Under the pieces are notes generated by a model. That model was not told the DNA's origin. It saw only the letters and a list, made by a program, of their open reading frames with translations, and did no database searches. From Planctomycetaceae bacterium (GTDB taxonomy: Bacteria > Actinomycetota > UBA4738 > HRBIN12): a stretch of DNA of 51,324 nt. Every line of letters starts with the position of its first letter. The stretch's first letter is position 1. This document shows, piece after piece, positions 1-43,358 of this stretch. Location: positions 1 through 51,324 of the forward strand of contig JBLMXP010000102.1 of NCBI GenBank assembly GCA_050257835.1, in the 5' to 3' direction. Made by a program: the position numbers and the translations under genes.

Positions 1-5
1 CTGGC

Positions 6-1427
6 TCATGCCGAGGCCAACCGGAAGGCGAACGTCGCGCCGCCGCCCGGCGTCTCCTCCGTCCAGATCGTGCCGCCCATCGCCTCCACGAACCCCTTGC
101 AGATCGCGAGGCCCAGACCCGCGCCCAGACGCGGGGAGCGCTCTCCCAGGCGGTAGAAGGGGGTGAACAGCAGCTCGCGGTCCTCGGGGTCCAGCCCGGG
201 GCCGTGGTCGGCGACCCGCACGACGACGTCGGAGCCCGCGCGGGCCGTGCTGAGCATCACCCGGCGGTCTCCGCCGGCCCGCACCGACCTCGCCGCGTTC
301 TCGAGCAGGTTCACGACGACCCGCTCCACGAACACCGGGTCGCCGCGGACGATCGCGTCGGTGGGGACCTCAGCGCCGATGTCGACATCGGGCCAGCGGG
401 CGATCACCGACACGACGGCGGGCGGCACGGTCTCCGACAGGTCCACCGCGCGGGTCTTCGCGACGAGGGTGCCGCTCTCGATCCGCGACATGTCGAGCAG
501 GTTCGTGATCAGTTGCTCGAGCCGGCTGGTGGAGGCGCGCACGTCCTCGAGCACGTCGGCGACCTCGCCCGGCTGTGCCGCTTCGCCCCGGTCCAGCAGG
601 TCGGTCACCGCGGCGGTGATCGCGGCCACCGGGCTCTTCAGCTCGTGCGACGCGGCCGCCAGCAGCGATCGCCGCAGCGCGTCGGTGCGCTGCAGGACCT
701 CGGCCTCGCGAGCCGCGTCCTCCAGACGCCGGGCTTGCAGCGTCAGCGCCAGCTGGTCGGCGAACGTCCGCAGCACCCGGCCCTCGGTGGCCGACAGCGG
801 CGCGCGGTCCCCGACGAGCACGAGCATCCCAAGCTCGTCGGGCCCGACGTCGAGCGTGAACCGTGGGAACGGCACATCCTCCGGATCGTCCCGGCCGGGG
901 GGCCGGACCACCGCCGAGACGAACCCGAACCGCTCCGCGGTCCTGGCCAGCACGCGCACCAGCCCGTCCCTGGACCCGCCCTCGTCGGCGAGATCCCTGC
1001 TCAGCTCGTAGAGCACGCGGACCTCGGCTTCCCGCGCCTCGGCCGCCGCCGCACGCTCCTGCGCCCGCGCGACCAGGACCGAGATGATCGTGGCTGCCGC
1101 CGCGAACCCGACGAGCACCGCGACGAACTCCCCCCGCTCCACCGAGAGGCTCCCGTAGGGCGGGATGAACACGTAGTTGAAGAGCGCGGATCCGACCACC
1201 GCACCGACGATCCCGGGCCCGAGCCCCGCGATCCATGCGGCGGCGACGACCGGCACCAGCAGGACCAGCGTGATCAGCGCGTGGTTGACCTCGGCACGGA
1301 TCGGGCCGAGGACGAGCGCGACGAGGAGCGGGCCGAGGACCGCGACCGCGTAGGCGGACCGGCGCTTCCATGGCCCGGCCGTCGTGGCGAGCCTCGGCCC
1401 CGGTCGCGTGCGGACGTCCATCGGCAC
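6..1427 (-). CDS. KdpD-type sensor histidine kinase, C-terminal half only (membrane DUF4118-like block, GAF-like linker, HisKA, HATPase_c); orphan paralog
   Basis: 473-aa ORF. It has an N-terminal multi-TM block (LITLVLLVPVVAAAWIAG, FNYVFIPPYGS), an H-box SHELKSPVAAI, and ATPase boxes NLLENAARS, DHGPGL and GLGLAICKG. It starts at the membrane domain with no KdpD N-terminal/Usp region. It is closely similar to the kinase at 4706..6184 (RTDALRRSLLAAASHELKSP vs QTDAVRRSLLAAVSHDLRSP). Confidence 0.85.
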   Translation of the reverse strand: MPMDVRTRPGPRLATTAGPWKRRSAYAVAVLGPLLVALVLGPIRAEVNHALITLVLLVPVVAAAWIAGLGPGIVGAVVGSALFNYVFIPPYGSLSVERGEFVAVLVGFAAAATIISVLVARAQERAAAAEAREAEVRVLYELSRDLADEGGSRDGLVRVLARTAERFGFVSAVVRPPGRDDPEDVPFPRFTLDVGPDELGMLVLVGDRAPLSATEGRVLRTFADQLALTLQARRLEDAAREAEVLQRTDALRRSLLAAASHELKSPVAAITAAVTDLLDRGEAAQPGEVADVLEDVRASTSRLEQLITNLLDMSRIESGTLVAKTRAVDLSETVPPAVVSVIARWPDVDIGAEVPTDAIVRGDPVFVERVVVNLLENAARSVRAGGDRRVMLSTARAGSDVVVRVADHGPGLDPEDRELLFTPFYRLGERSPRLGAGLGLAICKGFVEAMGGTIWTEETPGGGATFAFRLASA

Positions 1428-1517
1428 GTCACCCTACCCGTCGCCCCCGCGCCCTTACGTTCCCCTTATCCGCGAGGCCTAGCGTCGCTGGTGAACGGAC
1501 GAGACGCAGGGGACACG

Positions 1518-3998
1518 ATGGCCCGCACGGACGCCCAACCCGGAACCACGCCGCGGACCGAGGTCGCCGGCAGCCGCGCGCCGCTTCCGCGTGGCCCGGG
1601 GTACGCGGTGAAGCGCGCGGTGCTCGGTCCCGCGCTGCCGACCGCCAACCTGATCCACGAGCGACTCGGCAAGGTCACCGCCCTCGCGATCTTCTCCTCC
1701 GACGCGCTGTCCTCCGTCGCCTACGCGACGCAGGAGATGCTGATCACGCTGTTCGCGGCCGGCGTGATCGCGGCGGCGGCCTTCCATCTGATCGTCCCGC
1801 TGTCGCTCGTGATCGTGTCGGTGCTCGCGATCTTGATGTTCAGCTACCGACAGACGATCAAGGCCTACCCCTCGGCCGGGGGCGCGTACATCGTCACGAA
1901 GGACAACTTCGGCCTGCTGCCGGCGCAGGTCGCCGGGGTGGCGCTCCTCACCGATTACGTGCTGACGGTCGCCGTGTCGGTCTCCGCCGGCGTCGCCGCG
2001 GTCGTCGCGGTCTTCCCAGAGCTCGCCTTCCTCCGCGTCGAGATGGCGGTCCTCGCGATCGTGATCCTCGCGCTCGGCAACCTGCGCGGGGTGAAGGAGT
2101 CCGGCCGGATCTTCGCGGCTCCGACCTACGTGTTCATCACGATGATCTTCTCGCTCCTGGTGATCGGCGCGATCCGATGGGCGACCGGATCGCTGCACGT
2201 GGCGTCGACCTCGGCGACGTACGCGACCGAGTGGGCCGCAGCGTTCAAGGCCAACGTCGGCACGTTGGCGCTCGTGAGCGCCGTCCCCCTCGGTCTGGCG
2301 ATGCACGCGCTCGCCTCCGGTTCCGCGGCGATGACCGGCGTCGAGGCGATCTCGAACGGCGTCCCGGCGTTCAAGCCGCCCGAATGGCGCAACGCGCGCA
2401 CGACGTTGATGGTCATGGGCGCCACGCTCGGCACGATGTTCCTCGGGATCTCGATCCTCGCCCAACGCGTGCAGGCGGTGCCCGATCCCGCCGACAAGGA
2501 CACGGTCCTGGCGGAGATCGGGCGCGCGATCTACGGCACCTCGGGGATCGGCCACCTCGCGTTCCTGATCCTGCAGGGCGCGACGATGCTGATCCTGGTC
2601 CTGGCGGCCAACACGGCGTTCGCGGACTTCCCGCGCCTGGCGAACTTCCACGCGGACGACGCCTTCCTGCCGCGGCAGTTCACGACGCGCGGCCACCGGC
2701 TCGTCTTCTCCAACGGCATCATCGCCCTCGCGGGGGCCGCCACGCTCCTGGTCGTCGCGTTCGGCGCCGACGTCACCCACCTGATCCCGTTCTACGCGAT
2801 CGGCGTGTTCACCTCGTTCACGCTGTCGCAGGCGGGGATGGCCAGACGCCACCTCCGGCTGCGGGAGCCGAGCTGGCGCCTCGGCCTGTTCGTCAACGGG
2901 CTCGGCTCGCTTGCCACGGGGCTCCTGCTGCTCGTGATCGGCGTCACGAAGTTCACGCACGGCGCCTGGGCCGTGATGGTGCTCGTGCCGGTGATGGTCT
3001 TCCTGCTGGTGCGGATGAACCACCAGTACGACCGCGAGAAGGTCGCGCTCGAACGCGACCTCGCAGCGTTCGGGCCACCCGAGCGCCTGGAGCACCCGGT
3101 GGTCGTGCTCCTCGTGGACGAGCTCGACCCGAGGACCGTCCACGCCCTGCAATACGCGAAGACGCTCCGCACGAAGGAGGTCATCGCGGTGCACCTGGAG
3201 GAGGACCCGGAGCGGACGCGCCGACTCCAACACGCCTGGCGCGTGGCAGGGCTGGATGCCGTCCCCCTGCGGGTCGTCCCCGGTCGCGGCGAGGACCCCG
3301 CGCGGCTGTGCGGCTTCGTCGGCGCGCTGTCGGCGCCGCAGGACACGGTGCTCGTCGTCGTGCCGGTGCCCCATCAACGTTCGCGGTTGGAGCGTCTGTC
3401 CGAGGCACGCGCCGGCGCGCGGCTCACCCGGGCCCTCCTGCCGTACGAGAACGTCGCGGTCACGCTCGTGCGGGACCACCCCGAGGGCGTCCATCCGCTC
3501 CAGCGGGACCCGCAAGGGCGGCCGATCGTCCACCTGAGCCCGCGGGCGACCCACGACGTCGTGATCCTGATCGACAAGCTCGACCGGGCGACCCTGCGCG
3601 CGATCCGCTACGCGATGACGCTCGGCGGCACCACCGTGCGGGCGCTGCACGCCGCGGCGGATCCGGATCGCGCCGTCCGGCTCGGTGAGCGCTGGCAGGA
3701 GCTGAACGCGCCGGTGCCGCTGGACATCGTCGAATGCTGGGACCGCGACGTCTCGCGGACGATCGAGCGGCACATCGTCTCGCTCTCACGTGGTGGCTCG
3801 CGCGGCAGCGAGGTGACCGTGGTGATGCCTCGCCGCGACTTCCCGAAGCTCCACCAGCGCCTGCTGCACGATCGGACGAGCCGGCGGATCCATCGCGCGC
3901 TCGGTCGCTACCCGCACATCGACGTCGCCGACGTGCCGTACTTCGTGCACGACGGCGCGACCGTAGGCGCCGCGGACCTCGAGACGGCCTCGGGCTAG
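1518..3998 (+). CDS. KimA-family (APC superfamily) putative K+/H+ symporter with two tandem C-terminal cytoplasmic domains
   Basis: The ATG at 1518 follows AGGGGA. The upstream part of the 204..3998 ORF is antisense shadow. Blocks recalled from B. subtilis KimA are present: SSDALSSVAYATQE, SYRQTIKAYPSAGGAYIV, LLTDYVLTVAVSVSAG, MTGVEAISNGVPAFKPP, LILVLAANTAFADFPRL, RGHRLVFSNGII, HLIPFYAIGVFTSFTLSQAGM. At 826 aa it is about 200 aa longer than KimA because the C-terminal domain occurs twice. Confidence 0.8.
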   Translation: MARTDAQPGTTPRTEVAGSRAPLPRGPGYAVKRAVLGPALPTANLIHERLGKVTALAIFSSDALSSVAYATQEMLITLFAAGVIAAAAFHLIVPLSLVIVSVLAILMFSYRQTIKAYPSAGGAYIVTKDNFGLLPAQVAGVALLTDYVLTVAVSVSAGVAAVVAVFPELAFLRVEMAVLAIVILALGNLRGVKESGRIFAAPTYVFITMIFSLLVIGAIRWATGSLHVASTSATYATEWAAAFKANVGTLALVSAVPLGLAMHALASGSAAMTGVEAISNGVPAFKPPEWRNARTTLMVMGATLGTMFLGISILAQRVQAVPDPADKDTVLAEIGRAIYGTSGIGHLAFLILQGATMLILVLAANTAFADFPRLANFHADDAFLPRQFTTRGHRLVFSNGIIALAGAATLLVVAFGADVTHLIPFYAIGVFTSFTLSQAGMARRHLRLREPSWRLGLFVNGLGSLATGLLLLVIGVTKFTHGAWAVMVLVPVMVFLLVRMNHQYDREKVALERDLAAFGPPERLEHPVVVLLVDELDPRTVHALQYAKTLRTKEVIAVHLEEDPERTRRLQHAWRVAGLDAVPLRVVPGRGEDPARLCGFVGALSAPQDTVLVVVPVPHQRSRLERLSEARAGARLTRALLPYENVAVTLVRDHPEGVHPLQRDPQGRPIVHLSPRATHDVVILIDKLDRATLRAIRYAMTLGGTTVRALHAAADPDRAVRLGERWQELNAPVPLDIVECWDRDVSRTIERHIVSLSRGGSRGSEVTVVMPRRDFPKLHQRLLHDRTSRRIHRALGRYPHIDVADVPYFVHDGATVGAADLETASG

Positions 3999-4001
3999 CG
4001 C

Positions 4002-4709
4002 TCAGCCGGCCGCAGCGCGGTCGGCGACTGGGCGCAGCATCCAGCGGTAGCCGATCCCCGGCTCGGTCACGATCGCCCGCGGTCTGCGCGGATCCGGCTC
4101 GATCTTGTGCCGGAGCTGGCTCACGAACACGCGGAGCACCTCAACGTCCTGTGCGTAGGGATCGCCCCACACCTTCTCGAGCAACCAGCGATGGGTGAGC
4201 AGCTTGCCCGAAGCGCCGACGAAGGCCTCCAGGAGCGCCCACTCGGTCCTCGTGAGGTGCACGTCGGCGCCGTCGCGACTGACGCGATGCTCGCCGAGGT
4301 CGATCAGCACGTCCCCAGCGCGGAACCGCGGCGGGGACGATCCCGCGGGCTCGGCCCGCCGCAGGAGCGCGCGCACGCGCGCCAGGAACTCCCCCACCCC
4401 GAAGGGCTTCGTCAGGTAGTCGTCGGCGCCGAGGTCGAGCGCGGCGATCTTGTCCGGCTCCTCCTCCCGCACCGACAGCACCAGCACCGGCACGGCGCTC
4501 CACGAGCGCAGCCGACGGCACACCTCCAGCCCGTCCATCACCGGCATGTTCAGGTCGAGGACCACGAGGTCGGGCGCCGCGGTCGCGACCCGATCGAGCC
4601 CTTCGGCGCCATCGGCCGCCGTGTCGACCTCGTACCCGCGCGCGGCCAGCGCGCGTTCCAGCGCGACGCGGATGTGCGCCTCGTCGTCGATCACGAGGAC
4701 CCGCGTCAT
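4002..4709 (-). CDS. kdpE: OmpR-family response regulator KdpE
   Basis: Starts at MTRVLVIDDE (the upstream part of the 324-aa ORF is Arg/Gly-rich junk). Receiver motifs are VVLDLNMP and TKPF; the winged-helix C-terminus has LTRTEWALLEAF and GIGYRW. The ATGA overlap with the upstream kinase stop (4706..4709) indicates translational coupling. Confidence 0.88.
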   Translation of the reverse strand: MTRVLVIDDEAHIRVALERALAARGYEVDTAADGAEGLDRVATAAPDLVVLDLNMPVMDGLEVCRRLRSWSAVPVLVLSVREEEPDKIAALDLGADDYLTKPFGVGEFLARVRALLRRAEPAGSSPPRFRAGDVLIDLGEHRVSRDGADVHLTRTEWALLEAFVGASGKLLTHRWLLEKVWGDPYAQDVEVLRVFVSQLRHKIEPDPRRPRAIVTEPGIGYRWMLRPVADRAAAG

Positions 4710-6184
4710 CCCGACCCCTTGGGCAGCGTGCAGACGAACGTCGCGCCCCCGCCGGGTGTGTCTTCGACCCAGAGGCTCCCGCCCATCAAGTCGACGAACC
4801 CCTTCGAGATCGCGAGCCCCAGCCCCGGGCCCAGGTGCGGCGTGCGCTCCGAGAGCCGGTAGAAGGCCGTGAACAGCTGCTCCCGCGCCTTCGCTTCGAT
4901 CCCCGGGCCGTGGTCTACGACCCGCACCGACGGGTCGGCCCCCTGGCGCCCGACGACGACCTCGACCTCGCGGCACGCGGCCGTCTCGGCGGCGCGGGCG
5001 GCGTTGTCGAGCAGGTTCGAGAGCACCCGGTCGAGGAACACGGGGTCGGCGGTCGCGGTCGCGGGATCTTCACCGATCTCTGCAACGAACGTCACCCCCG
5101 GCCATCTGCGCTCGACGTGGTCGAGCTCGCCGAGCACGATCTCGGCCAGGTCCACGACCTCCGGGCGGGCACGCAAGACGCCCGCCTCGATCCTCGACAT
5201 GTCGAGCAGGTTCGCCACCAAGGCGTCGAGCCGATCGGTCTCCGCGTCGATCGTGCGGAGCACGTCGTCGCGTTGCCCGTCTCCCCGGGCGACCTCGGGA
5301 TCCAACAGGTCCGTCACCGACGCCTTGATCGCGGCCAGCGGGCTCCGCAGGTCGTGCGACACCGCGGCGAGCAGGCTCCGTCGCACCGCGTCGGTCTGAC
5401 GCAGGACCTCGGCAGCGGTCGCGGCGCGCAGCAGCCGGTCGCGTTCGAGGACCAGGGCGAGCTGGTCGCACACGGCGCGCAGCACGCGGCCCTCGGCGTC
5501 CGTCAGCGGGTCGCGGTCGCCCGTGAGCACGATCAGGCCGAGGGTCCGGTTGCCGACCGTGAGCGGCAGGCGCTCGGGCGCGGCTCCGGGCGCCGACGGG
5601 TCCCACGTCGCCGAGAGCGGCCCTTCACCGATCCTGATCCGTTCCACCAGCGTCCCATCGTCGGCACGCTCGAACAGGCCGCCCGACGCGTATCCGAACG
5701 TCGCCACGAGCCGCTCGAGCAGGCTGCGGTAGGTCTCCTCCCCGGGCCCCCGGACGACGAGGTCGCGGCTCAGCTCCTGCAGCGTCCGAAGCTCGGCCTC
5801 CCGCGCCTCCGCCGCGTCCGCGCGGTCGGCGGCGTTGGCGACCAGGACCGACACGAGGACCGACAGCCCGAGGAAGACGAACAGCGCGAAGACGTCCTCC
5901 GCCGCGCCGATCGCGAACGTCCCGTAGGGCGGCAGGAACAGGAAGTTGAACGAGAGGAACGCGACGACCGATGCGACGATACCCGGGCCGAACCGGCCGA
6001 TCGCGGCGGTGATCACCACGAGCACGAGGAAGAAGAACCCCACCGTCTGGGGTCGCACGACGGTGCGCAGCGGGAGCAGCGCGAGGCCGAACACGACCGG
6101 GCCCACGACGCCGATCAAGTAGCCGACCGTGCGACGACGCGTCGCCGCGGGTTCTCGAACCAGGCGGAACATCCGGGTGCCCAC
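4706..6184 (-). CDS. kdpD: KdpD-type sensor histidine kinase lacking the N-terminal KdpD/Usp domains
   Basis: 492-aa ORF. It has a DUF4118-like TM block (FFFLVLVVITAAIGRFGPGIVASVVAFLSFNFLFLPPYG), a GAF-like region, an H-box SHDLRSPLAAI, and NLLDNAARA, DHGPGI, GLGLAISKG. It is coupled to kdpE and divergent from kdpF. The start could be M1 or M5. Confidence 0.88.
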   Translation of the reverse strand: MGTRMFRLVREPAATRRRTVGYLIGVVGPVVFGLALLPLRTVVRPQTVGFFFLVLVVITAAIGRFGPGIVASVVAFLSFNFLFLPPYGTFAIGAAEDVFALFVFLGLSVLVSVLVANAADRADAAEAREAELRTLQELSRDLVVRGPGEETYRSLLERLVATFGYASGGLFERADDGTLVERIRIGEGPLSATWDPSAPGAAPERLPLTVGNRTLGLIVLTGDRDPLTDAEGRVLRAVCDQLALVLERDRLLRAATAAEVLRQTDAVRRSLLAAVSHDLRSPLAAIKASVTDLLDPEVARGDGQRDDVLRTIDAETDRLDALVANLLDMSRIEAGVLRARPEVVDLAEIVLGELDHVERRWPGVTFVAEIGEDPATATADPVFLDRVLSNLLDNAARAAETAACREVEVVVGRQGADPSVRVVDHGPGIEAKAREQLFTAFYRLSERTPHLGPGLGLAISKGFVDLMGGSLWVEDTPGGGATFVCTLPKGSG

Positions 6185-6331
6185 GACCCGAGGATAGGCA
6201 CACCCGTGTCGCGGCGGAACGGGTCGCCGGCCAGGCGCGCCAACCCATACGGTTCCCGAACGCCGTACACGGCAGACCTCACGGGGGCCTCACACCGGAT
6301 GCGTAGCGTCGCGGGTGGAGGTGAGATCCAC

Positions 6332-6415
6332 GTGACGGACCTGATGATGATCGCGCTCACGGTCGTGACGTTCCTCGCGATCGGGCTGTTCGTCGTCGCG
6401 ATGGACCGGGTGTGA
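6332..6415 (+). CDS. 27-aa hydrophobic peptide upstream of and overlapping kdpF (candidate extra Kdp small subunit or leader peptide)
   Basis: The GTG at 6332 lies 8 nt after GGAGGTGAG. Every codon ends in G or C. The product VTDLMMIALTVVTFLAIGLFVVAMDRV is a single TM helix. Its TGA overlaps the kdpF GTG (GTGA at 6412..6415). Confidence 0.45.
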   Translation: MTDLMMIALTVVTFLAIGLFVVAMDRV

Positions 6416-6501
6416 CGACCGCCGACGTCCTCGAGCTGATCGTCTCGGTCGCGCTGCTCGTGTACCTAACGGTCGCGCTGCTCCGTCCGGAGCGGTTCTG
6501 A
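6412..6501 (+). CDS. kdpF: K+-transporting ATPase subunit F
   Basis: 29 aa, VTTADVLELIVSVALLVYLTVALLRPERF. This is a typical KdpF: a single TM, an aromatic residue mid-helix and a C-terminal (P)E(R/K)F. It ends 1 nt before the kdpA ATG. It is too small for the ORF track. Confidence 0.8.
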   Translation: MTTADVLELIVSVALLVYLTVALLRPERF

Positions 6502-6502
6502 G

Positions 6503-8173
6503 ATGGCCACCGTCTTGGCCCTGCTCGTCCTGATCGTCGCCCTGACGCCGCCGCTCGGCGCCTACATGTACCGGGTCTACACGGCGGAGCGGATCGGACG
6601 CGCGGAGGGCCTGCTGTACCGGCTGATCGGCGTCAACCCGGCGACCGAGCAGAGCTGGAAGCGCTACGCGAGCTGTGTCGTGTGGTTCAGCGCGATCTCG
6701 ATGCTGCTGACCTACGCGGTCCTGCGGCTGCAGGCGCACCTCCCGCTCGACCCCACCGGGGTGCCGGCGGTCGGCACGAACGTCGCCTTCAACACCGCGG
6801 CCAGCTTCGCGTCCAACACGAACTGGCAGACCTACGGGGGCGAGACGACGATGAGCTACCTGAGCCAGATGCTCGGGCTCACGTTCCAGAACTTCGTCTC
6901 GGCCGCCGTCGGCATGGCGGTGCTGGTCGCGACGATCCGCGGCTTCGTGCGCTCGCGCGGCGAGGGCCTCGGCAACTTCTGGCGCGACCTGGTGCGCACG
7001 GTCGTGTACATCCTCCTGCCGCTCGCGGCCCTCGTCGCCCTGCTCCTCATCGCCCAGGGCGTCGTGCAGACCTTCGCGGGCTCCGTCGTGGTCAGGGGGA
7101 TCCAGGGGTTCGAGCAGACGATCGCCCGCGGTCCGGTCGCGTCGCAGGTCGCGATCAAACAGCTCGGCACGAACGGCGGGGGGTTCTTCAACGTGAACTC
7201 CGCGCACCCGTTCGAAGGCGGCACGCCGCTCGCGGACTTCCTCGAGCTCGTCTCGATCCTGCTGATCCCCGCCGCCCTGACCTACACCTTCGGCAAGATG
7301 GTCGGCAACGTCCGCCAGGGCTGGGCGCTGTTCGCGGCGATGCTGGTGCTCTTCCTCGCCGGCCTCGCCGTCACGGTCCCCCAGGAGCACACGGCGACCC
7401 AGGCGATGCAGACGGCGGGCGTCGCCGCGGCCCAGCCGAACCTGGAGGGCAAGGAGGTCCGCTACGGACCGGACCTCTCGGGGACCTGGGCGGTCGCCAC
7501 CACGGCCGCATCCAACGGCTCGGTCGACTCGATGCACGACTCATACCAGCCGCTCGCGATGGTCGTGCCGGTGTTCAACATCGCGGTCGGCGAGATCGTG
7601 TTCGGCGGCGTCGGCAGCGGCCTGTACGGGATGCTCTTCTACGTCGTGATCGCCGTGTTCATCGGCGGCCTGATGGTGGGGCGCACGCCCGAGTACCTGG
7701 GCAAGAAGATCGGCGCCCGTCAGGTCAAGATCTCCGCGATCGCGGTGCTGGTGCCGTTCCTGCTGGCGCTCGCGATGACGGCGGTGGCCGTGGTGACCCC
7801 CGCCGGCCTGTCGGCACGGCTCAACGACGGACCGCACGGCTTCACCGAGATCCTCTACGCCTTCTCGTCGATGGGGAACAACAACGGCTCGGCGTTCGCG
7901 GGTCTGACGGCGACCGGCGCGCTCTACTCGGTCGGCGGCGGGGTGCTGATGCTCGCCGCGAGGTTCGTCCCGTTGATCGCCGCGCTGGCCCTCGGAGGTT
8001 CGCTCGTCGTGGAGGGCGTGGTTCCCGAGACCGAGGGCACGCTGCCGACCGATCGGCCGTTGTTCGTGGGTCTGCTGGACGGCGTGATCGTCGTGATCGG
8101 CGCCCTCACCTTCTTCCCGGCCCTCGCGCTCGGGCTGATCGTGGAGGGTCTGACCAAGGGGGTGACACGATGA
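6503..8173 (+). CDS. kdpA: K+-transporting ATPase subunit A
   Basis: 556-aa polytopic protein. KdpA blocks include [29 protein letters not shown] and [11 protein letters not shown]. Confidence 0.95.
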
Positions 8174-10242
8174 CCACGGTGCAGGCGCCGCCGATCGCGC
8201 CCCCGCAGGAGCCCCACGGCGCCGTCAAGGCCAGGCCGCTGTTCGACCCGCCGATCGTCCGGCGCGCGGTGCTCGACAGCATCCTGAAGCTGAACCCCCG
8301 CACGCTCATGAAGAACCCCGTGATCTTCGTGGTCGAGGTCGTCTCGGTCATGGTCACGGTCCGGATCGTCGCCGACGCCCTCGGCGGCGGTCCGGTCGCC
8401 TTCGAGGCGGCGATCGCCGCAGGGTTGTGGTTCACGGTCCTGTTCGCGAACTTCGCGGAGGCGATGGCCGAGGGCCGCGGCAAGGCGCAGGCCGACGCCC
8501 TGCGCAGGACCCGGGCCGACCTCGTCGCGCGCCGGATCGGACCCGACGGCGAAGAGACCGTCGCGGCGTCCGAGCTGCGGGCGGGCGACCTCGTGATGAT
8601 CGCGGCGGGCGAGCTGATCCCCGGCGACGGTGAGATCGAGGAGGGCATCGCGTCGGTGGACGAGTCGGCGATCACCGGGGAGTCGGCGCCCGTGATCCGC
8701 GAGTCGGGCGGCGATCGCTCGGCCGTGACCGGCGGGACGAAGGTGCTGTCGGACTGGATCAAGGTTCGGATCACGGCCGATCCGGGGCAGTCCTTCCTCG
8801 ACCGGATGATCTCCCTGGTCGAGGGGGCCGAGCGCCAGAAGACCCCCAACGAGATCGCGCTGTCGATCCTGCTCGCGAAGTTCACGATCATCTTCCTGAT
8901 CGTCTGCGTGGCCCTGCAGCCGTTCGCGATCTACGCGGGCGGTCGCGTGTCCGACGCGGTGCTGATCGCGCTGTTCGTGTGCCTGATCCCGACCACGATC
9001 GGCGGCCTGCTCTCCGCGATCGGGATCGCCGGGATGGACCGGCTCGTCCAGCACAACGTGCTCGCGATGAGCGGGCGCGCCGTCGAGGCGGCCGGCGACG
9101 TCTCCACGCTCCTGCTCGACAAGACGGGGACGATCACCCTGGGCAACCGGCAGGCGGTCGCCCTCGTGCCGGCCCCCGGCATCGAGGAGCGCGAGCTCGC
9201 CGAGGTCGCGCAGCTGGCCTCGCTCGCCGACGAAACCCCCGAGGGACGTTCGATCGTGATCCTCGCGAAGGAGCGCCACGGGATCCGCGGCCGCGAGCTG
9301 ATGGAGACGCACGCGCGTTTCGTCCCGTTCACCGCGCAGACACGGATGAGCGGCGTCGACCTCGACGGGACTGAGATCCGCAAGGGCGCCGTGGACTCCG
9401 TGCTGGCCTGGTCCGGGCGCGAGATGCCGGCGCCGCTCGCCGAGGAGGTCGAGCGCATCGCGCGTGGCGGCGGGACCCCGCTCGCGGTGGGGCGCGACCG
9501 CGAGCTCCTCGGCGTGATCGAGCTGAAGGACGTGATCAAGGAGGGCCTGCGCGACCGCTTCGACCAGCTGCGCGCGATGGGGATCCGCACCGTGATGATC
9601 ACCGGCGACAACGTCCTGACCGCCGCGGCGATCGCGCAGGAGTCCGGGGTCGACGACTTCCTCGCCGAGGCCACCCCCGAGACGAAGATGGCGCTGATCA
9701 AGCGCGAGCAGGAGGGCGGCAAGCTCGTCGCCATGACCGGGGACGGCACGAACGACGCCCCCGCCCTCGCGCAGGCCGACGTCGGCGTGGCGATGAACAC
9801 GGGCACCACCGCCGCGAAGGAGGCCGGCAACATGGTCGACCTCGACTCCAACCCCACGAAGCTGATGGAGATCGTCGAGATCGGCAAGCAGCTGCTGATC
9901 ACCCGCGGTGCCCTCACCACGTTCTCGATCGCGAACGACGTCGCGAAGTACTTCGCGATCATCCCCGCGATGTTCGTGACGACGTTCCCGGTGCTCGACC
10001 GGCTGAACGTCATGCACCTGCGGACCCCCGAGTCGGCGATCCTGTCCGCGGTGATCTTCAACGCCGTGATCATCGTGTTGCTCGTCCCCCTCGCGCTGCG
10101 CGGCGTGGCGTACCGGCCCCTGGGCGCTGCCGCGCTACTCCGTCGCAACCTGCTGATCTACGGCCTCGGCGGCCTGATCGCGCCGTTCGTCGGCATCAAG
10201 CTGATCGACCTGCTGCTCGCGGCCGTCCACTTCCCGAGGTGA
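8170..10242 (+). CDS. kdpB: K+-transporting P-type ATPase subunit B
   Basis: The ATG at 8170 overlaps the kdpA stop (ATGA). P-type motifs are DKTGTIT, MITGDN and [11 protein letters not shown]. The 6682..8169 extension of the ORF is out-of-frame overlap with kdpA. Confidence 0.95.
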
Positions 10243-10832
10243 TGACATTGAAGACCGCCGTCCGCGCGCTGCTCGCCACGATCGTCCTGGCCGCGATCAC
10301 CGGGCTGCTGTACCCGCTGGCGATGACCGGCGTGGCGCAGGTCGCCTTCGGAACGAAGGCGAACGGCTCGTTGGTCGACGTGCACGGCCGCCCCGCCGGC
10401 AGCGCGATGATCGGGCAGGCCTGGAGCGGACCGGACTGGTTCCACGGCCGGCCCTCCGCGGACGGCTACGACGCGAGCGCCTCGGCCGGCTCGAACCTCG
10501 GCCCGACCTCCGCGACCCTGTCCGAGGAGATCCACCAGCGGATCGCCGCGGTCCTGAAGCGGGAAGGCCCGTACCAGCCGGGGCTGACCGCGGCAGACGT
10601 CCCCGCGGACCTCGTCACCGCCTCGGCGAGCGGGCTCGACCCGGACATCTCGGTCGCCTCCGCCCTGCTGCAGGCGCCGCGGATCGCCGCCGTCCGGGGG
10701 ATCGCCCTGGCGCAGGTCCGGCAGCTGATCGACGCGCACACGTCGAGCAAGGAGCTCGGGTTCCTCGGGGAGCTGCGCGTGAACGTGCTCGAGCTGAACC
10801 TCGCCCTCGAACAGATGGCCCCGCGGGGATGA
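10239..10832 (+). CDS. kdpC: K+-transporting ATPase subunit C
   Basis: 197 aa with an N-terminal TM anchor and the [10 protein letters not shown] motif. ATGA overlap with the kdpB stop. Confidence 0.93.
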
Positions 10833-11164
10833 TGGCGATGACCCAGGCCCGGACCGTGCTCGTGGTGGGCCGGAAGGCAGCCTCGGTGCCGGAGCTCAAC
10901 GGCACCTTGCTGTTCGGCGCGGGGATCTGCATCCTGACGATCGGGTGGCCCGTCACCGCGGTGCAATCCGCGCTCGTCGAGCGCGCGATCGACGCGGCTC
11001 GCGACGCCCGGGTGCCCGTCGAAGCGATCCTCGTCACGTCCGACATGCGCGCAACGGATCATCTACGTACCGATGACGACGTCCGCGTGGTCGCGCCACG
11101 CCGCGAGAGCATGCGGCTCGCGCGGGCCCTCGCCGCCGTCGGCATCGACGCCCGGCCGCTCTGA
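10829..11164 (+). CDS. Hypothetical 111-aa soluble protein translationally coupled to kdpC
   Basis: ATGA overlap with the kdpC stop. About 90% of codons end in G/C, matching the genome's coding bias. The alternating beta/alpha-like pattern is TVLVVGRK .. AVQSALVERAIDAARDA .. VEAILVTSD .. VRVVAP .. MRLARALAAVGI. I recognise no family. Confidence 0.6.
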   Translation: MMAMTQARTVLVVGRKAASVPELNGTLLFGAGICILTIGWPVTAVQSALVERAIDAARDARVPVEAILVTSDMRATDHLRTDDDVRVVAPRRESMRLARALAAVGIDARPL

Positions 11165-11176
11165 GGCTCCCCCCGC

Positions 11177-12370
11177 TCAGCGCTCGCGATGCGCGATCAC
11201 GTGGATGTCGGTGTTCGCCGCCCTGCGGATCAACTCGTTGACGAAGGAGCCGCGGAGCATCTCCTTCCAGCGCGAGCGCAGCGGCTCCCCAACCACGATC
11301 TGCGTGACGAACTGACGGTAAGCGAATCCCAGCACGGCCTCGACCGCGTCGTCCGCATCGATCACGTGCAGCTCCCCGCCGAGCGCGTCCGCGAGCTGCC
11401 GGATCGTCTCGAGCCAAGCCTCCTTCGGCTCCGCGCCCTCGCGGACGTGGACCACGAGGAGGTCGCCACGGGCCCGCTGCGAGATGCGCGCCCCCCGACG
11501 GACGAGATCCTCGGAGAAGTCGGGATGCGAGACGCAGATCAGCACCCGCTCGCGGGTCTCCGGCACCTTCCCCTTCGTCCAGCGGGACAGGAGCGTCTCG
11601 TCGACCTGGTTCGCGACCCGCATCAGGGCCAGCTCGCGCAGCGCCGTCAGGTTCTCGGTCGTGAAGAAGCGCTGCAGCGCCAGCTCGGCCTTGCGCTGGT
11701 CGGGATAGACGTTGCCGTGCAGCATCCGCCGGCGGAGCGCGTAGGGCGACATGTCGACCAGCTCGATCTGATCGGCGAGGTCGACGAGCCAATCCGGCAC
11801 GGTCTCCCGCTGGCGGATCCCGGTCGCGTCGGCGACGACGTCGTTGAGGCTCTCGAGGTGCTGCACGTTGACCGTCGTGATGACCTCGATCCCGTCGGCG
11901 AGCAGGTCGAGGACGTCCTCCCACCGCTTCGCGTGCGCGCCGCCGGGGACGTTCGTGTGCGCCAGCTCGTCGATCAGCGCCACCTCGGGCTGGAGGGCGC
12001 GGACCCCGTCGGTGTCGAGCTCGGGGAACTCCGTGCCGCGGTAGGCGCGCCTCGCGGGCGGCACCACCTCGAGCCCTTCGAGCATCGCGATCGTCTGCGG
12101 ACGTCCGTAGGTCTCGACGCAGCCGACCACGACCCGCGCGCCCCGTCCGGCACGGCGGCGCCCTTCCGACAGCATCGCGTAGGTCTTGCCGACCCCCGGC
12201 GCGGCGCCGAGGTAGACGCGCAGCGGCGCGTGCTTGGCCGCGAGCGCCGTGTCGCGGTTCCAGGCCCGCGCCCCCGCCGGCTCGGGCACGACGCTGCGCC
12301 CGACGAGCGACTCGACCGACTCCGAGCCGCTGGGGTACGTCTCCGGAGGCACCTGCGGCGCCTGGCTCAT
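11177..12370 (-). CDS. Stand-alone KdpD N-terminal sensor domain plus Usp domain protein (no membrane or kinase part)
   Basis: 397 aa. It has a Walker A GAAPGVGKT, and KdpD N-domain blocks ALIDELAHTN, RWEDVLDLLADGIEVITTVNVQHLESLND, MSPYALRRRM and FFTTENLTALRELALM. A Usp-like segment follows (RVLICVSHPDFSEDLVRRGARISQRARGDLLVVHV). It ends without TM helices or an H-box. Confidence 0.9.
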   Translation of the reverse strand: MSQAPQVPPETYPSGSESVESLVGRSVVPEPAGARAWNRDTALAAKHAPLRVYLGAAPGVGKTYAMLSEGRRRAGRGARVVVGCVETYGRPQTIAMLEGLEVVPPARRAYRGTEFPELDTDGVRALQPEVALIDELAHTNVPGGAHAKRWEDVLDLLADGIEVITTVNVQHLESLNDVVADATGIRQRETVPDWLVDLADQIELVDMSPYALRRRMLHGNVYPDQRKAELALQRFFTTENLTALRELALMRVANQVDETLLSRWTKGKVPETRERVLICVSHPDFSEDLVRRGARISQRARGDLLVVHVREGAEPKEAWLETIRQLADALGGELHVIDADDAVEAVLGFAYRQFVTQIVVGEPLRSRWKEMLRGSFVNELIRRAANTDIHVIAHRER

Positions 12371-12390
12371 CCCCGAAGGGTACGCCCCGC

Positions 12391-12750
12391 CTAGCCCGTG
12401 AACTCCAGCCGAGGGTTGATCATCTGGATCGCGTTCTTCTGCTCGGAGAGCAACCCTTCGACGACGACCCGGGTCCCCAGTCCGAGGCCGCGGATCGCCC
12501 GGCGCCCCATGAACCGCACGACGACCTCGCCGGTGCCGTCAGACACGACCGCCTCGAGCGACTCGTTGTCCTGCAGCGGGAACACCGTGAGCCGGCGGAT
12601 CACCCCGGCGATGCGCACCTGCTCGCGCAACGGGGCGCGGCCGATCCGCACCGACCCCGGCACGGTCTCGGCCCATTCGCGGATCTCGGCGTTCAGGCGC
12701 GCTTCGTCGGACTCGGTCAACCGGTCGAAGAACCGACGGAGCGCCCCCAT
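12391..12750 (-). CDS. Small OB-fold domain protein (actinobacterial family usually seen next to trkA/ceoBC)
   Basis: 119 aa. The pattern VRIAGVIRRLTV .. LEAVVSDGTGEVVVRFMGRRAIRGLGLGTRVVVEG .. NPRLEF matches my recollection of the mycobacterial Rv2694c-type OB-fold protein. Spacers to both neighbours are 20-25 nt. Confidence 0.72.
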   Translation of the reverse strand: MGALRRFFDRLTESDEARLNAEIREWAETVPGSVRIGRAPLREQVRIAGVIRRLTVFPLQDNESLEAVVSDGTGEVVVRFMGRRAIRGLGLGTRVVVEGLLSEQKNAIQMINPRLEFTG

Positions 12751-12775
12751 CTCGACCGCAGCCTAGCCCTGCCGC

Positions 12776-15079
<2,304 letters not shown>

Positions 15080-19104: not shown

Positions 19105-19479
19105 CTACGGTCGGCCGCCGATGGCCAGCCCGGCGGCCGCTAGCAGCAGCCCTACCGCCGTGCTGCCGACGAGGTTGAGCAGCCCGTAGCGGGGCGCGCC
19201 TTCACGGAGCAGCCGCAGGGACTCGAACGCGAGCGTGGAGAACGTGGTGAACGCGCCGATCAGGCCCGTGCCGATCCCGACCTTGATCACGGCGGGCGCG
19301 CTCGCGTGCTGCGTCACGAACCCGGTCACCACCCCGAGCAGGCAGGCGCCCACGAGGTTCACGGCGAGGGTCCCGGCCGGGAACGCGCCGTCCCACCGCT
19401 CCTGCACGAAGCCGTCGAGGAGGTAGCGGCAGACCGCGCCGGCGGCTCCTGCGGCGAAGACCGTCAGCAGCAACGTCAC
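19105..19479 (-). CDS. crcB: Fluoride channel CrcB/FluC, second copy
   Basis: 124 aa, starting at a GTG that overlaps the upstream crcB stop (GTGA at 19476..19479). Motifs are GAAGAVCRY, NLVGACLLG and GLIGAFTTFSTLAFES. The remainder of the 543-aa ORF upstream is shadow. Confidence 0.85.
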   Translation of the reverse strand: MTLLLTVFAAGAAGAVCRYLLDGFVQERWDGAFPAGTLAVNLVGACLLGVVTGFVTQHASAPAVIKVGIGTGLIGAFTTFSTLAFESLRLLREGAPRYGLLNLVGSTAVGLLLAAAGLAIGGRP

Positions 19480-19889
19480 CGGCGGGGACGCCCCTTCACC
19501 GACAGGCGCTCCCAGGCCAGGGCCGCCCCGTAGCCCAGCGCGCAGGCAGCGACACCGCCCGCGAGCGACACGACGACGTACACGAACGCAGCCACGACCT
19601 GTCCGTCGCCCGTCAGCCGCGCCGACTCGACCACGAACGTCGAGAAGGTGGTGAACCCGCCGAGGACCCCGATCCCGACGAACGGGCGCACGTAGGTGGT
19701 CGGCGGCCACACGTCGAGGACCAGCGTCAGGACGAGTCCCAGCAGGAACGACCCGCCCAGGTTGATCAGGAGCGTGACCCACGGGAAGGCGGGCGGCGTG
19801 GCAGGGGCGAACGTCAGCGCGAGCTCGTAACGCGCGCACGCGCCGAGCCCGCCGCCGAGCGCGACGGCCAGGACGATCCGGGGCCGCAC
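19476..19889 (-). CDS. crcB: Fluoride channel CrcB/FluC, first copy
   Basis: 137 aa. Motifs are GGGLGACARY, NLGGSFLLG and VLGGFTTFSTFVVES. Confidence 0.9.
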   Translation of the reverse strand: MRPRIVLAVALGGGLGACARYELALTFAPATPPAFPWVTLLINLGGSFLLGLVLTLVLDVWPPTTYVRPFVGIGVLGGFTTFSTFVVESARLTGDGQVVAAFVYVVVSLAGGVAACALGYGAALAWERLSVKGRPRR

Positions 19890-20252
19890 CTAGCCCGGGT
19901 CCTTGCCCCGATAGGTGATGACGTGGACCTTCTCGATCGTGACGAGGCCGTCGGCGACCATCTCGTCGAGGATCGGGAGGATCCGCTGGATGTGCTCCTC
20001 CGTGTCGACGATCTCGATCACGAGCGGCAGATCTTCGCTCAGCCGGAGGATCCGCGCGGAGTGCAGGTGCGAGCTGGCGCCGAAGCCCTCGACGCCCCGC
20101 ACCACGGTGGCGCCGGCGAGGCCCTCGTCGCGGACGCGCCGGACGATCTCCTCGTACAACGGCTTGCCGTGCCAGCGGTCGGAGTCGCCGACGAAGATCC
20201 GGACGAGCTGACCCTCTCCTTCCAGACGCATCTCCACCTCCCGCTCGGGCAC
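19890..20252 (-). CDS. DUF190 (PII-like fold) protein associated with crcB
   Basis: 120 aa with LVRIFVGDSDRWHGKPLYEEIV and GATVVRGVEGFG. Its stop abuts the crcB start with no gap. Confidence 0.85.
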   Translation of the reverse strand: MPEREVEMRLEGEGQLVRIFVGDSDRWHGKPLYEEIVRRVRDEGLAGATVVRGVEGFGASSHLHSARILRLSEDLPLVIEIVDTEEHIQRILPILDEMVADGLVTIEKVHVITYRGKDPG

Positions 20253-20280
20253 GTTCCGGCCTCACCGTAGACTGCGCCGC

Positions 20281-24824: not shown

Positions 24825-25862
24825 TCAGATCCGCGTCAGCACGTACGCGACGTAGCCGACGTAGAACACGCCCTGCGCGAGCAGCAGCGGCGCCTCCAGC
24901 CGCCCGCGGAACCGGAGCGTCAGGTAGAGGACGCCGCCCGCCGCCAGCGCGATGACCGCGGCCACCAGCGCCTCGCCGGTCAGGACCCACGGGGTGAGCA
25001 GCAGGCCGACGGTGACCGGGAACGAGGATTGGAACACCATCGCGCCGGTCATGTTGCCCATCGCCAGGGTGTCCTTCCCGCGGCGCACCCACAGCACGCT
25101 GTTGAACTTCTCGGGGAGCTCCGTCGCGAGCGGCGCCAGCAGCAGCGAGAACGCGAGCGGGGCCACACCGAAGCGCTCGCTGAGCGCGCCTACGACGTGG
25201 ACGAACAGCTCCGCGCCGCCCACGATCAGCCCGAGCGCGAGCGCCACCTGCACGAACGGCGCCGCCACCGAGCCGTCCTTCGTCCAGGGCGCGAGCGAGG
25301 AACGCATGCGCCGGAGCCACTGCCAGACGTAGAGCGGCTTGATCTCCGAGCCCGCCTCGACCTCGAGCTCGTCTTCGCCGGGAGCCTGGAAGTGCCGCCG
25401 CACGTAGTAGACGTAGCCGACCACCAGCACGATCACGAGCGCGTAGTCGACAGCCTTCAGGTGCAGGAGCCCGGCGAGGGTGGCGAGCGCGTACATCACG
25501 AGGAAGTAGCCGAGGTCCTGGCGGATCACGCCCGCGTCGATCCGCAGGACGTGCGGACGCCGCCCGCCACGCCCGAAGATCAGGATCGACACGGCGATCA
25601 CGACCATCGCGAGCGTGGTCAGCATGAAGGGCGCCCCGAGGATCGCGCCGGTCCCGATCTCTTCGCCGGCCCCGTGGCCCGAGGCGATCGCGACGATCGG
25701 CAGGAGCGTCTCGGGTAGCGCGGTCCCGACCGCGGCGAGCACGGAGCCGACCGCGCCGTCGGACAGCCCGAACCCCTCGCCGACCCACTCGACGCCGTTC
25801 GTGAACAGCTCGGCCCCGGCCAGGATCACCAGCAGCGAACACACGAGCAGCGCCCAGTCCAT
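24825..25862 (-). CDS. CaCA-family sodium/calcium (cation) exchanger
   Basis: 345-aa polytopic protein with two alpha-repeat signatures, GTALPETL and ATELPEKF. Confidence 0.85.
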   Translation of the reverse strand: MDWALLVCSLLVILAGAELFTNGVEWVGEGFGLSDGAVGSVLAAVGTALPETLLPIVAIASGHGAGEEIGTGAILGAPFMLTTLAMVVIAVSILIFGRGGRRPHVLRIDAGVIRQDLGYFLVMYALATLAGLLHLKAVDYALVIVLVVGYVYYVRRHFQAPGEDELEVEAGSEIKPLYVWQWLRRMRSSLAPWTKDGSVAAPFVQVALALGLIVGGAELFVHVVGALSERFGVAPLAFSLLLAPLATELPEKFNSVLWVRRGKDTLAMGNMTGAMVFQSSFPVTVGLLLTPWVLTGEALVAAVIALAAGGVLYLTLRFRGRLEAPLLLAQGVFYVGYVAYVLTRI

Positions 25863-25900
25863 CGGCGGCCCATGCTCCCAGGGCTGCTAGGTTCCACGCA

Positions 25901-39161: not shown

Positions 39162-39601
39162 TCGGCGGCGGGTACCCGCACGAGGATCTGCGCGAGGATC
39201 TCTTCCGAGATCGCGATCTCGGTCTCGCCGACGCGGACCACCGGCACCGGACGGCGCTGCAGCACGGCCACGGCGGTCCCCGGCGTGAGCCCGTAGGCCG
39301 TCAGCCGGCTGGCGCGCCCGGACGGCATCTCTCCGAGCCGGTGGACCACGACCTCCTCCCCCGTCGCGACATGGGTCAACGGCACCCCGACGTCGTCGGG
39401 GCGCCGGCTCGACGCGGCGTCGTCCTCGTTGCGGCCGAACCAGCGCGCGAGCGCCTTCGCGAGGCCGCTCTTGGACTCGTCGACCACCTGGTAGCCGCAG
39501 TTCGGGCAGCAGATCAGCGAGCACCGCGCACCGAGCGGGCAGCCGGCGTGGCACGCGAGCGCGCTCGCGTCGAACACGTGGCCGCAGAGGCGACACCGCA
39601 T
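39149..39601 (-). CDS. feoA: FeoA-domain protein with an N-terminal 8-Cys extension
   Basis: 150 aa. The C-terminal SH3-like FeoA domain is VVVHRLGEMPSGRASRLTAYGLTPGTAVAVLQRRPVPVVRVGETEIAIS. The N-terminus MRCRLCGHVFDASALACHAGCPLGARCSLICCPNCG has Cys at positions 3, 6, 17, 21, 27, 31, 32 and 35. Confidence 0.8.
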   Translation of the reverse strand: MRCRLCGHVFDASALACHAGCPLGARCSLICCPNCGYQVVDESKSGLAKALARWFGRNEDDAASSRRPDDVGVPLTHVATGEEVVVHRLGEMPSGRASRLTAYGLTPGTAVAVLQRRPVPVVRVGETEIAISEEILAQILVRVPAADQPS

Positions 39602-39602
39602 C

Positions 39603-42328: not shown

Positions 42329-42426
42329 CCCAACCCGGAGCGCCCGGGCGGATGAACCGTCCGCCCGGGCGGCTCGTATCACCTCCATCGTTCGCCCACG
42401 GCGAGGGGCTCAGAAGGAGGTACCTC

Positions 42427-43331: not shown

Positions 43332-43358
43332 GCCGTCATCTTCGCGGATGATGGGCGA

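Follow-up and report, generated by a model that had tools for sequence, protein, structure and literature searches.

A probable split KdpD control system within a potassium homeostasis cluster of an uncultured Actinomycetota lineage

The N-domain of the potassium sensor KdpD is an atypical serine kinase, which phosphorylates KdpB at Ser162 and inhibits the pump (PMC11018627). Isolated KdpD 1-230 suffices for KdpB phosphorylation in vitro, and mutagenesis of Escherichia coli KdpD established that G36/K37/T38, W39/R190 and D109/E110 are required for phosphorylation of KdpB-S162 (PMC11018627). A natural KdpD/Usp-only protein of Deinococcus geothermalis also phosphorylates E. coli KdpB and is stimulated by cyclic di-AMP (c-di-AMP), not by K+, and proteins of this kind persist in species without KdpE and without a KdpD-type kinase (PMC11018627), so the domain has a function independent of that kinase. 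A survey of 5495 species names a KdpD/Usp chain together with a transmembrane (TM)/GAF/DHpCA chain as the commonest two-chain combination (PMC11018627), and split KdpD has been described in Alicyclobacillus, Deinococcus and Anabaena/cyanobacteria (PMC11018627, PMC5716572). Here we analyze a locus on contig JBLMXP010000102.1, where the KdpD N-domain and a Usp domain form a free protein of 397 amino acids (aa), KdpD-N/Usp, beside a kdpFABC operon and two histidine kinases, HK1 and HK2. At 51,324 bp the window spans the whole contig, and its left edge is the contig end. An earlier note on this DNA had suggested an unusual branched K+ sensing circuit; in light of the survey, the split itself is an already described class.

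Considering what was observed directly, namely domain content, conservation, synteny, catalytic residues and a cut regulator start, we regard the locus as probably a naturally split Kdp control system of the published class, lying within a wider K+ homeostasis cluster in an uncultured lineage of Actinomycetota. Its novelty is modest and consists of a KdpD-N gene that converges on the kdp operon, touching or overlapping the operon's 3' end, and is not co-transcribed with it, and of a triplicated sensor pair. A literature search for KdpD-like paralogues controlling KimA/Trk and for split KdpD in Actinobacteria returned nothing beyond the papers cited here, which is weak evidence given that few subscription journals were covered. 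For comparison, we used nine loci from different samples that share the core arrangement (L001, L002, L003, L082, L084, L085, L086, L087 and L088; the clade loci) and five stand-alone loci outside this clade (L033, L038, L055, L069 and L073).

The free KdpD-N/Usp protein and its counterparts

Pfam analysis of the 397-aa protein revealed a KdpD domain (PF02702) at residues 48-256 (E 1.7e-84) and a Usp domain at residues 274-365 (25.7 bits, just over the cut-off of 24), and the chain stops after residue 397 with no TM, GAF, DHp or CA domain. PDB 2r8r, a solved KdpD N-domain, matches the protein with E 2e-64, and E. coli KdpD residues 21-375 align with it at 43% identity. The protein has Walker A (G55-X5-G61K62T63, its first glycine matching E. 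coli G30), Walker B (D134/E135) and R215, the counterpart of E. coli R190. G55, G61, K62, T63, D134, E135 and R215 are invariant in the window protein and nine other aligned sequences; Y64 replaces E. coli W39, and the aromatic residue is kept. In the ITGES motif of the window KdpB, E171/S172 align with E161/S162 of E. coli, the target of the KdpD serine kinase.

The NCBIfam model of canonical KdpD (NF007793, PRK10490; curated cut-off 1123) gave 302 bits for KdpD-N/Usp over model positions 21-375, 177 bits for HK1 over positions 416-883 and 173 bits for HK2. HK1 is 30% identical to E. coli KdpD 429-884 and HK2 is 28% identical to E. coli KdpD 426-875, and together the free protein and the kinases (about 426-884, 28-30% identical) cover all of E. 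coli KdpD, compared with which HK1 has a short GAF-like region and HK2 an even shorter one. Whereas both activities lie on one polypeptide in E. coli, with the serine kinase controlled by the K+-sensing membrane/GAF part, they are on separate chains here and the serine kinase has no such control in cis. The locus holds both chains of the split-KdpD class, a KdpD/Usp chain and a separate kinase chain with a KdpE-type regulator. A second curated family, NF038185 ('KdpD-like non-kinase potassium sensor'), aligned with the free protein over positions 17-372 of its 373-position model at 349.8 bits; the score is below its cut-off of 550, and the protein is therefore no member of that family. The earlier note had assigned the N-domain and Usp to a separate protein convergent with kdp and the remaining kinase domains to two further proteins, and the profile searches bore this out, with PF02702 and Usp in the free protein and DUF4118, HisKA and HATPase_c in both kinases.

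The N-terminal extension of the free protein (residues 14-26) carries the motif SGSESVESLVGR, which recurs in L001, L002, L084 and L085 and which neither the E. coli and Deinococcus proteins nor full-length actinobacterial KdpD have.

Deinococcus likewise has a KdpD-N plus Usp protein without a membrane or kinase part, and at the D. radiodurans locus the kinase and regulator form a pair of their own, transcribed divergently from the pump genes (PMC5716572), as in the window. The Deinococcus short KdpD is 43% identical to the window protein and has the same catalytic residues, and Usp region I of D. radiodurans resembles that of the window (RRGARISQRARGDLLVVHV against RRGGQLAERLRGELHVVTV). The gene orders differ, however: in Deinococcus (kdpBAC-kdpD-N) kdpD-N closes the pump operon and shares its strand, whereas here it is on the opposite strand, with 12 nucleotides (nt) between its 3' end and the end of the operon. 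The Deinococcus locus has one kinase/regulator pair, against as many as three in this clade, where KimA-like and trkA genes lie in between. A split-KdpD system published in 2006 (reference 55 of PMC11018627) has the N-part and the kinase part in separate transcription units around kdp, as here, and the text citing it mentions neither paralogous kinase pairs nor linkage to KimA. The cyanobacterial short KdpD proteins (Anabaena L-31, Synechococcus) share the two-domain architecture but belong to another phylum and another gene order.

Kinase and regulator pairs

HK1 and HK2 each begin about 20 residues ahead of DUF4118, and even their maximal open reading frames (ORFs) are too short to include an N-domain. 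Aligned over their full length, the two share 48% identity (E 3e-116), in agreement with the earlier description of two paralogous kinases that start at the membrane block. The H-box (SHDLRSP), N-box and G-boxes of HK1 are intact, and its GAF match is weak (22.8 bits vs a cut-off of 22.4). HK1 is divergent from kdpF, and the start of kdpE overlaps the HK1 stop codon, which confirms the coupling of this kinase to kdpE. The kdpE product is 49% identical to E. coli KdpE, and its best NCBIfam model is KdpE (228.9 bits, under the equivalog cut-off of 325). Orthologues of HK1 occupy the matching position in eight related loci; L003, which ends within kdpB, ends before that side.

HK2 had been called an orphan, and the locus had been credited with two kinases and one KdpE, perhaps acting in a branched circuit. 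The minus strand ends in ...GGC ATGA GCCAG, where the HK2 stop codon TGA is overlapped by an ATG, and the three codons for MSQ are followed by the contig end. The corresponding ATGA of L083, where the kinase is 92% identical, leads into MSERILVVDDE..., a 228-aa protein with Response_reg and Trans_reg_C domains; the second regulator (RR2) of L082 starts with MSQRVLVVDDE, and L087 and L088 also have a regulator at this position. The complete regulators of the relatives, together with ATGA and MSQ at the contig end, demonstrate that HK2 has a cognate regulator, and the orphan kinase is an effect of where the contig stops. The single KdpE does not survive, and the branched circuit is not supported: the second kinase has its own regulator, related loci have three pairs, and no evidence here favours action in trans. 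Calls of 'orphan' kinases at contig ends are unsafe. HK2 orthologues (57-92% identity) are in every case flanked by a KimA-like gene on one side and by their own regulator on the other, and RR2 is 60% identical to KdpE, yet distinct.

In a neighbour-joining tree of the kinases (200 bootstrap replicates), the seven kdp-linked kinases formed one clade and the three HK2 another (bootstrap 100 each), and these two clades were sisters (bootstrap 100). HK3, the kinase of a third pair in relatives, grouped with the KimA-linked kinase of L001 (bootstrap 100), and the C-terminal halves of full-length actinobacterial KdpD formed a separate group (bootstrap 99). As the HK1 and HK2 clades are separate sisters, HK2 is an old paralogue of the kdp kinase and no recent copy or fragment.

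The longest view of the cluster came from L087, on a 1.23-Mb contig, which reads KdpD-N >< orf112-kdpC-B-A <> HK1-RR1 >< KimA-like 1 <> HK2-RR2 >< trkA-trkA <> HK3-RR3-KimA-like 2 (><, convergent; <>, divergent). L082 and L083 agree with this map, and the window matches it up to its left end. There are three KdpD-C/KdpE-like pairs, each divergent from a different K+ uptake system, i.e. Kdp, the KimA-like transporter, and TrkA plus the second KimA-like transporter. The regulators of the cluster are 51-61% identical among themselves and 43-49% identical to E. coli KdpE. The KimA-like proteins of the clade fall into two paralogue types about 37% identical to each other, one beside HK2 and the other downstream of HK3-RR3.

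Conservation of the locus and its neighbouring genes

The ratios of nonsynonymous to synonymous substitution (dN/dS) against close relatives were 0.17-0.24 for KdpD-N/Usp, 0.12 for HK1, 0.11 for HK2, 0.07 for KdpE, 0.13 for the KimA-like protein and 0.28 for the product of orf111, indicating that all parts are under purifying selection. The best 120 homologue clusters of KdpD-N/Usp (68-100% identity) are almost all 385-410 aa long, and most come from Actinomycetota metagenome-assembled genomes (MAGs) and metagenomes. In a scan of one genome per species, the protein was stand-alone, among the best 80 matches, in the three nearest loci (67-69% identity, from MAGs of Actinomycetota) and in five remoter loci (Acidimicrobiia, Actinomycetes, Thermomicrobiales and Chloroflexota), and about 70 others at about 50% identity had full-length KdpD (Streptomyces, Mycobacterium and similar genera). 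Among the nearest 150 representatives at 50% identity, drawn from 1.84 billion proteins, 66 were of full-length size and 15 of stand-alone size.

The core of the clade consists of KdpD-N on one strand and kdpF-A-B-C, usually with a homologue of the downstream gene orf111, converging from the other, with HK1-KdpE divergent from kdpF wherever the locus reaches that far. The KdpD-N gene lies on the strand opposite to the kdp operon in the window and in all nine clade loci, and it is co-directional with the operon in all five stand-alone loci outside. It adjoins kdpABC in 14 of the 15 stand-alone loci, whatever the position of the kinase, and is one gene away in L086, where a CaCA-family gene (PF01699) intervenes. 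The spacing to the operon end, measured in six of the ten loci, is 12 nt in the window (to orf111) and in L084 and 2 nt in L085, and the genes overlap by 4 nt in L082 and by 23 nt in L087 and L088. As orf111 follows kdpC, it is the gene that actually converges with KdpD-N. Scans of the junction between the two (11164..11177) for terminators and inverted repeats gave just a 5-bp palindrome around both stop codons.

Upstream of the KdpD-N gene and on the same strand lie an OB-fold gene (20 nt away) and, 25 nt further upstream, a gene for a membrane pyrophosphatase (PPase). Both neighbours are found in the same order in L002, L003, L084 and L085, with gaps of 20-35 nt where measured, and two trkA genes take their place in L086. 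The PPase gene is the probable first gene of a PPase-OB-KdpD-N transcription unit. The enzyme carries the motif GNSTKAITKG, which we take, after Belogurov and Lahti 2002, to mark the K+-independent (Lys) type; K+-dependence of the PPase, considered as a link to K+ homeostasis, was dropped for this reason. The NCBIfam name 'sodium-translocating pyrophosphatase' is probably generic for this protein.

Several related loci present other forms of the module. About a dozen of the nearest 150 representatives, with about 720-780 aa (P0246, P0248, P0250, P0251, P0254, P0255 and others), lack an H-box and contain a pair of Walker A motifs separated by about 380 residues, suggesting a tandem of two KdpD-N/Usp modules, and L073 (Chloroflexota, 5976..8413) has two adjacent KdpD-N/Usp genes after kdpC; no mention of a tandem form was noticed in the split-KdpD literature cited here. 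In L018 (Acidimicrobiia, 10001..13536) KdpD-N, a kinase and kdpE are adjacent on one strand, with a gap of 88 nt between KdpD-N and the kinase, and L055 (Acidimicrobiaceae; 431..5258 and 10001..11167) combines a KdpD-N/kinase pair of this sort with a second kinase and with a stand-alone KdpD-N located after kdpC. The kinases adjacent to KdpD-N in L018 and L055 group with the C-halves of full-length KdpD (bootstrap 99), which suggests that these splits are independent, more recent fissions or frameshifts. Apparent frameshifts also occur in related long-read MAGs, giving a 699-aa HK2-RR2 'fusion' in L082 (10001..12100) and a PPase in three pieces in L002 (7304..9528), so domain-fusion calls from such assemblies are untrustworthy unless checked.

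The kdp operon itself (Table 1) is preceded by a 27-aa hydrophobic ORF whose stop codon overlaps the GTG start of kdpF (GTGA). An ORF of the same size and character is found at the equivalent position in L082, L084 and L087, and it may encode a second KdpF-like membrane peptide. At the other end, orf111 is the last kdp operon gene in the clade, with orthologues in L082, L084, L085, L087 and L088. It had no Pfam match and four relatives in a word-indexed search, and its AF2 model (pLDDT 60, alternating beta/alpha) found nothing below E 0.1 in the PDB with Foldseek. In this clade orf111 looks like a hitherto undescribed accessory gene of kdp.

The gene divergent from HK2 encodes a homologue of the KimA-type K+/H+ symporter. 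PDB 6s3k (Bacillus subtilis KimA) matches residues 29-576 of the product (E 3.9e-109, phmmer), and all eight residues that matter for K+ binding or proton coupling in KimA (D36, Y43, D117, T121, S125, T230, E233 and Y377; PMC6994465) are identical in this alignment, so that the two proteins have in common the K+ site (D36/Y43/T121/Y377) and the proton-coupling E233 of the LeuT-fold membrane domain. The window protein has 826 aa vs 607 aa in B. subtilis because its cytoplasmic domain is duplicated in tandem (residues about 520-826; the copies are 35% identical, E 2e-11). B. subtilis KimA is inhibited by c-di-AMP (PMC6994465). The Bacillus gene is under a c-di-AMP riboswitch, whereas here an Rfam scan of the whole window at gathering thresholds matched no riboswitch, including the c-di-AMP (ydaO) class, and a KdpD-C/KdpE-like pair is adjacent instead. 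The G+C content is about 72% across the window and consequently long ORFs occur on both strands; coding frames were set by third-position GC (GC3) and profile searches. Two competing ORFs over the KimA-like gene, 1479..3773(-) and 1370..3688(+), were rejected, as neither has a Pfam match and the GC3 phase puts the real gene in the third plus-strand frame. The gene map of the earlier note was right in domain content and coordinates, but it had overlooked this gene and orf111.

In the window and in L082, L083, L087 and L088, HK2-RR2 and the KimA-like gene are transcribed divergently, and the promoter region between them holds the direct repeat CCTTA-N6-CCTTA (CCTTACGTTCCCCTTAT) with an 11-bp period, 10 nt upstream of a -10-like TAGCGT. 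The element is kept in the same four relatives while the flanking intergenic sequence diverges, making it a candidate binding site for an OmpR-family regulator. In the HK1/kdp promoter, a second element (CCATACGGTTCCCGAAC), kept in L082, L084, L087 and L088, is likewise a candidate regulator site. Each of the two 17-mers occurs once in the window, even with three mismatches allowed, and they share just a TTACGG(N)TCCC-like first half. A shared regulator site in both divergent promoters was rejected on this uniqueness, and a single KdpE regulon over both promoters is thus not supported. The pattern fits paralogous OmpR-family regulators with related but distinct sites, that is, predicted separate circuits with possible cross-talk.

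The remainder of the contig (19476..29549 and 39149..45229) carries many ion-transport and signalling genes, the coordinates of which are listed in Table 1. The source MAG is labelled 'Planctomycetaceae bacterium' by NCBI, the close homologues of all genes examined are from Actinomycetota MAGs, and the gene content (DUF6062, a LuxR-family GerE/TPR regulator and the PPase-OB pair) is actinobacterial-looking. The contig is probably mis-binned or mislabelled as Planctomycetaceae.

Table 1. Features of the window, in order of position, with the evidence for each
Feature	Coordinates	Strand	Evidence or detail
RR2, first three codons ATG AGC CAG (MSQ)	1..9	-	ATGA overlap at contig end
HK2 histidine kinase, 473 aa	6..1427	-	Pfam: DUF4118, short linker, HisKA, HATPase_c
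Direct repeat CCTTA-N6-CCTTA, CCTTACGTTCCCCTTAT	1453..1469	.	HK2/KimA divergent promoter
KimA-type K+/H+ symporter homologue, 826 aa	1518..3998	+	PDB 6s3k, PF13520, GC3 frame
kdpE, OmpR-type regulator, 235 aa	about 4002..4709	-	Response_reg + Trans_reg_C
HK1 histidine kinase, 492 aa	4706..6184	-	Pfam: DUF4118, GAF, HisKA, HATPase_c
Element CCATACGGTTCCCGAAC	6245..6261	.	HK1/kdp divergent promoter; unique in window
Hydrophobic ORF, 27 aa, VTDLMMIALTVVTFLAIGLFVVAMDRV	6332..6415	+	GGAGG ribosome-binding site
kdpF, 29 aa	6412..6501	+	ORF; 29-aa orthologues carry PF09604
kdpA	6503..8173	+	PF03814, E 6e-218
kdpB, 690 aa	8170..10242	+	63% identical to E. coli KdpB
kdpC	10239..10832	+	PF02669, E 2e-68
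orf111, 111 aa	10829..11164	+	Conserved ORF coupled to kdpC by ATGA
KdpD-N/Usp, 397 aa	11177..12370	-	Pfam, NCBIfam, PDB 2r8r, conserved catalytic residues
OB-fold protein, 119 aa	12391..12750	-	PF01336 at threshold
Membrane pyrophosphatase (PPase)	12776..15079	-	PF03030, E 1e-253
CrcB + DUF190	19476..20261		
NhaA	21639..23342		
Two CaCA-family exchangers	24825..27259		
FeoA/FeoB	39149..41837		
Class III adenylate/guanylate cyclase	43964..45229		

Role of the free protein

To explain the arrangement, we propose that HK1 would sense K+ limitation and phosphorylate KdpE, which would activate the divergent kdpF-A-B-C-orf111 operon; HK1-KdpE would in this way act as the transcriptional switch. The free KdpD-N/Usp protein would be a Walker A/B serine kinase that phosphorylates Ser172 in the TGES loop of KdpB, and this phosphorylation would shut off already-made pumps once K+ is sufficient. 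Such a post-translational brake on KdpFABC is, judging from homology, the likely role of the stand-alone protein. Because the protein is without a K+-sensing membrane part, its input would come via the Usp domain, possibly as a nucleotide such as c-di-AMP, although the identity of this ligand is speculative. HK2 would be the first gene of a second KdpD-C/KdpE-like pair, its regulator cut by the contig end, and HK2-RR2 most likely controls the divergent KimA-type symporter.

Several points weigh against this explanation. For this lineage, the serine-kinase activity, its target and the regulated genes are all assigned by homology, and what ties HK2-RR2 to the KimA-like gene is their conserved proximity together with a promoter footprint. 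P-type ATPases in general keep the TGES serine, so its presence in KdpB is necessary but not discriminating. The KdpD-N gene follows PPase-OB or trkA genes outside the pump operon, so another target is conceivable, and it is not co-transcribed with the pump, unlike in every split system in PMC11018627. The Usp domain adds a further point. In Staphylococcus aureus KdpD the c-di-AMP motif is (A/G/C)-X-S-X-S-X2-N ... (Y/F), spanning the beta1-alpha1 loop and beta2 (PMC8214093); the window Usp domain (C-V-S-H-P-D-F-S ... VVHV) matches this firmicute motif at two of five positions. The Usp domain of Mycobacterium tuberculosis KdpD matches at one of five and binds c-di-AMP about 0.7% as well as the S. 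aureus domain. The short KdpD of D. radiodurans is also without the motif, yet the D. geothermalis protein responds to c-di-AMP, and failure of the motif is therefore no bar to c-di-AMP control.

As an alternative, KdpD-N/Usp could be a shared input that docks in trans on HK1 and HK2 (and HK3 in relatives), tuning their kinase/phosphatase balance or scaffolding the regulators, and so passing one nucleotide signal to several regulons; this could coexist with the serine kinase. All kinases of the cluster are without an N-domain, and one KdpD-N gene was seen per locus. A separate N-domain reportedly restores truncated E. coli KdpD (Heermann/Jung, Ballal/Altendorf), and the Anabaena short KdpD is said to work as a chimera. 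Moreover, the authors of the D. radiodurans study suggest that KdpD-N, the sensor kinase and the regulator interact at the membrane (PMC5716572). The premise of two kinases on one KdpE is nevertheless wrong, each kinase having its own regulator, and KdpD/Usp-only proteins exist where there is no KdpE or KdpD-type kinase to receive their signal (PMC11018627). Conservation here falls on the catalytic residues of the serine kinase, and this together with the conserved KdpB target serine means that a serine kinase explains the free protein better than a shared kinase input, which we consider unlikely.

The serine kinase might instead have been re-targeted to the PPase, the OB-fold protein or TrkA/KimA, which would explain the exit of its gene from the kdp operon. 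Its position 20 nt downstream of the OB-fold gene, the PPase-OB order kept in four relatives, its place directly after two trkA genes in L086 and the KimA-like genes that follow kdpD-N in L033 and L069 are compatible with such a change. These upstream neighbours vary among relatives, however, while kdpFABC is adjacent or one gene away everywhere, and the KdpB target loop is intact. We know of no precedent for another substrate of the KdpD serine kinase, and re-targeting is accordingly a very doubtful explanation.

It is scarcely credible that the genes are decaying fragments, or that assembly errors or frameshifts produced them, while a functional full-length kdpD lies elsewhere in the genome. 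L055 does have a second KdpD-N immediately before a kinase from the group of the full-length KdpD C-halves, and frameshifts do occur in L082 and L002. The parts here, however, are on opposite strands and 5 kb apart, a distance that the earlier note had cited in judging a sequencing error unlikely; more than 100 homologue clusters (68-89% identity) are of about 395 aa and nine independent loci have the same architecture, dN/dS is 0.07-0.28 with catalytic motifs intact in all three proteins, Pfam scans found no second KdpD-domain (PF02702) gene within the 51-kb window, and the 2.77-Mb contig of L002 appears just once among the best 80 genome matches (down to 45% identity), so that the same-length homologues, conserved loci and low dN/dS exclude decay or frameshift for practical purposes.

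Beyond the brake on KdpFABC, the cluster might represent fully modularised K+ sensing, with triplicated kinase/regulator pairs dedicated to Kdp, to the KimA-type symporter and to TrkA plus the second KimA-type symporter, a free serine kinase, silencing by read-through and possibly a hub; we put this forward tentatively, as a fairly improbable extension. Through transcriptional interference or antisense RNA, read-through from kdp would turn off the gene for the pump's inhibitor, and the convergent, 3'-overlapping placement would thus, speculatively, make the inhibitor kinase anticorrelate with kdp induction. If true, read-through silencing would reverse the logic of all split systems described to date, in which inhibitor and pump are co-transcribed. 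The free KdpD-N/Usp protein might also act on several transporters or kinases as a hub.

Taken alone, the free N-terminal/Usp split is ordinary, adding one more lineage to a catalogued class. The locus is nonetheless a natural separation of function, in which the serine-kinase gene is transcriptionally apart from the pump, and it allows control of the brake to be tested without the K+ sensor of the histidine kinase. The three pairs beside Kdp, KimA-like and TrkA genes suggest that KdpD-type K+ sensing regulates more than Kdp.

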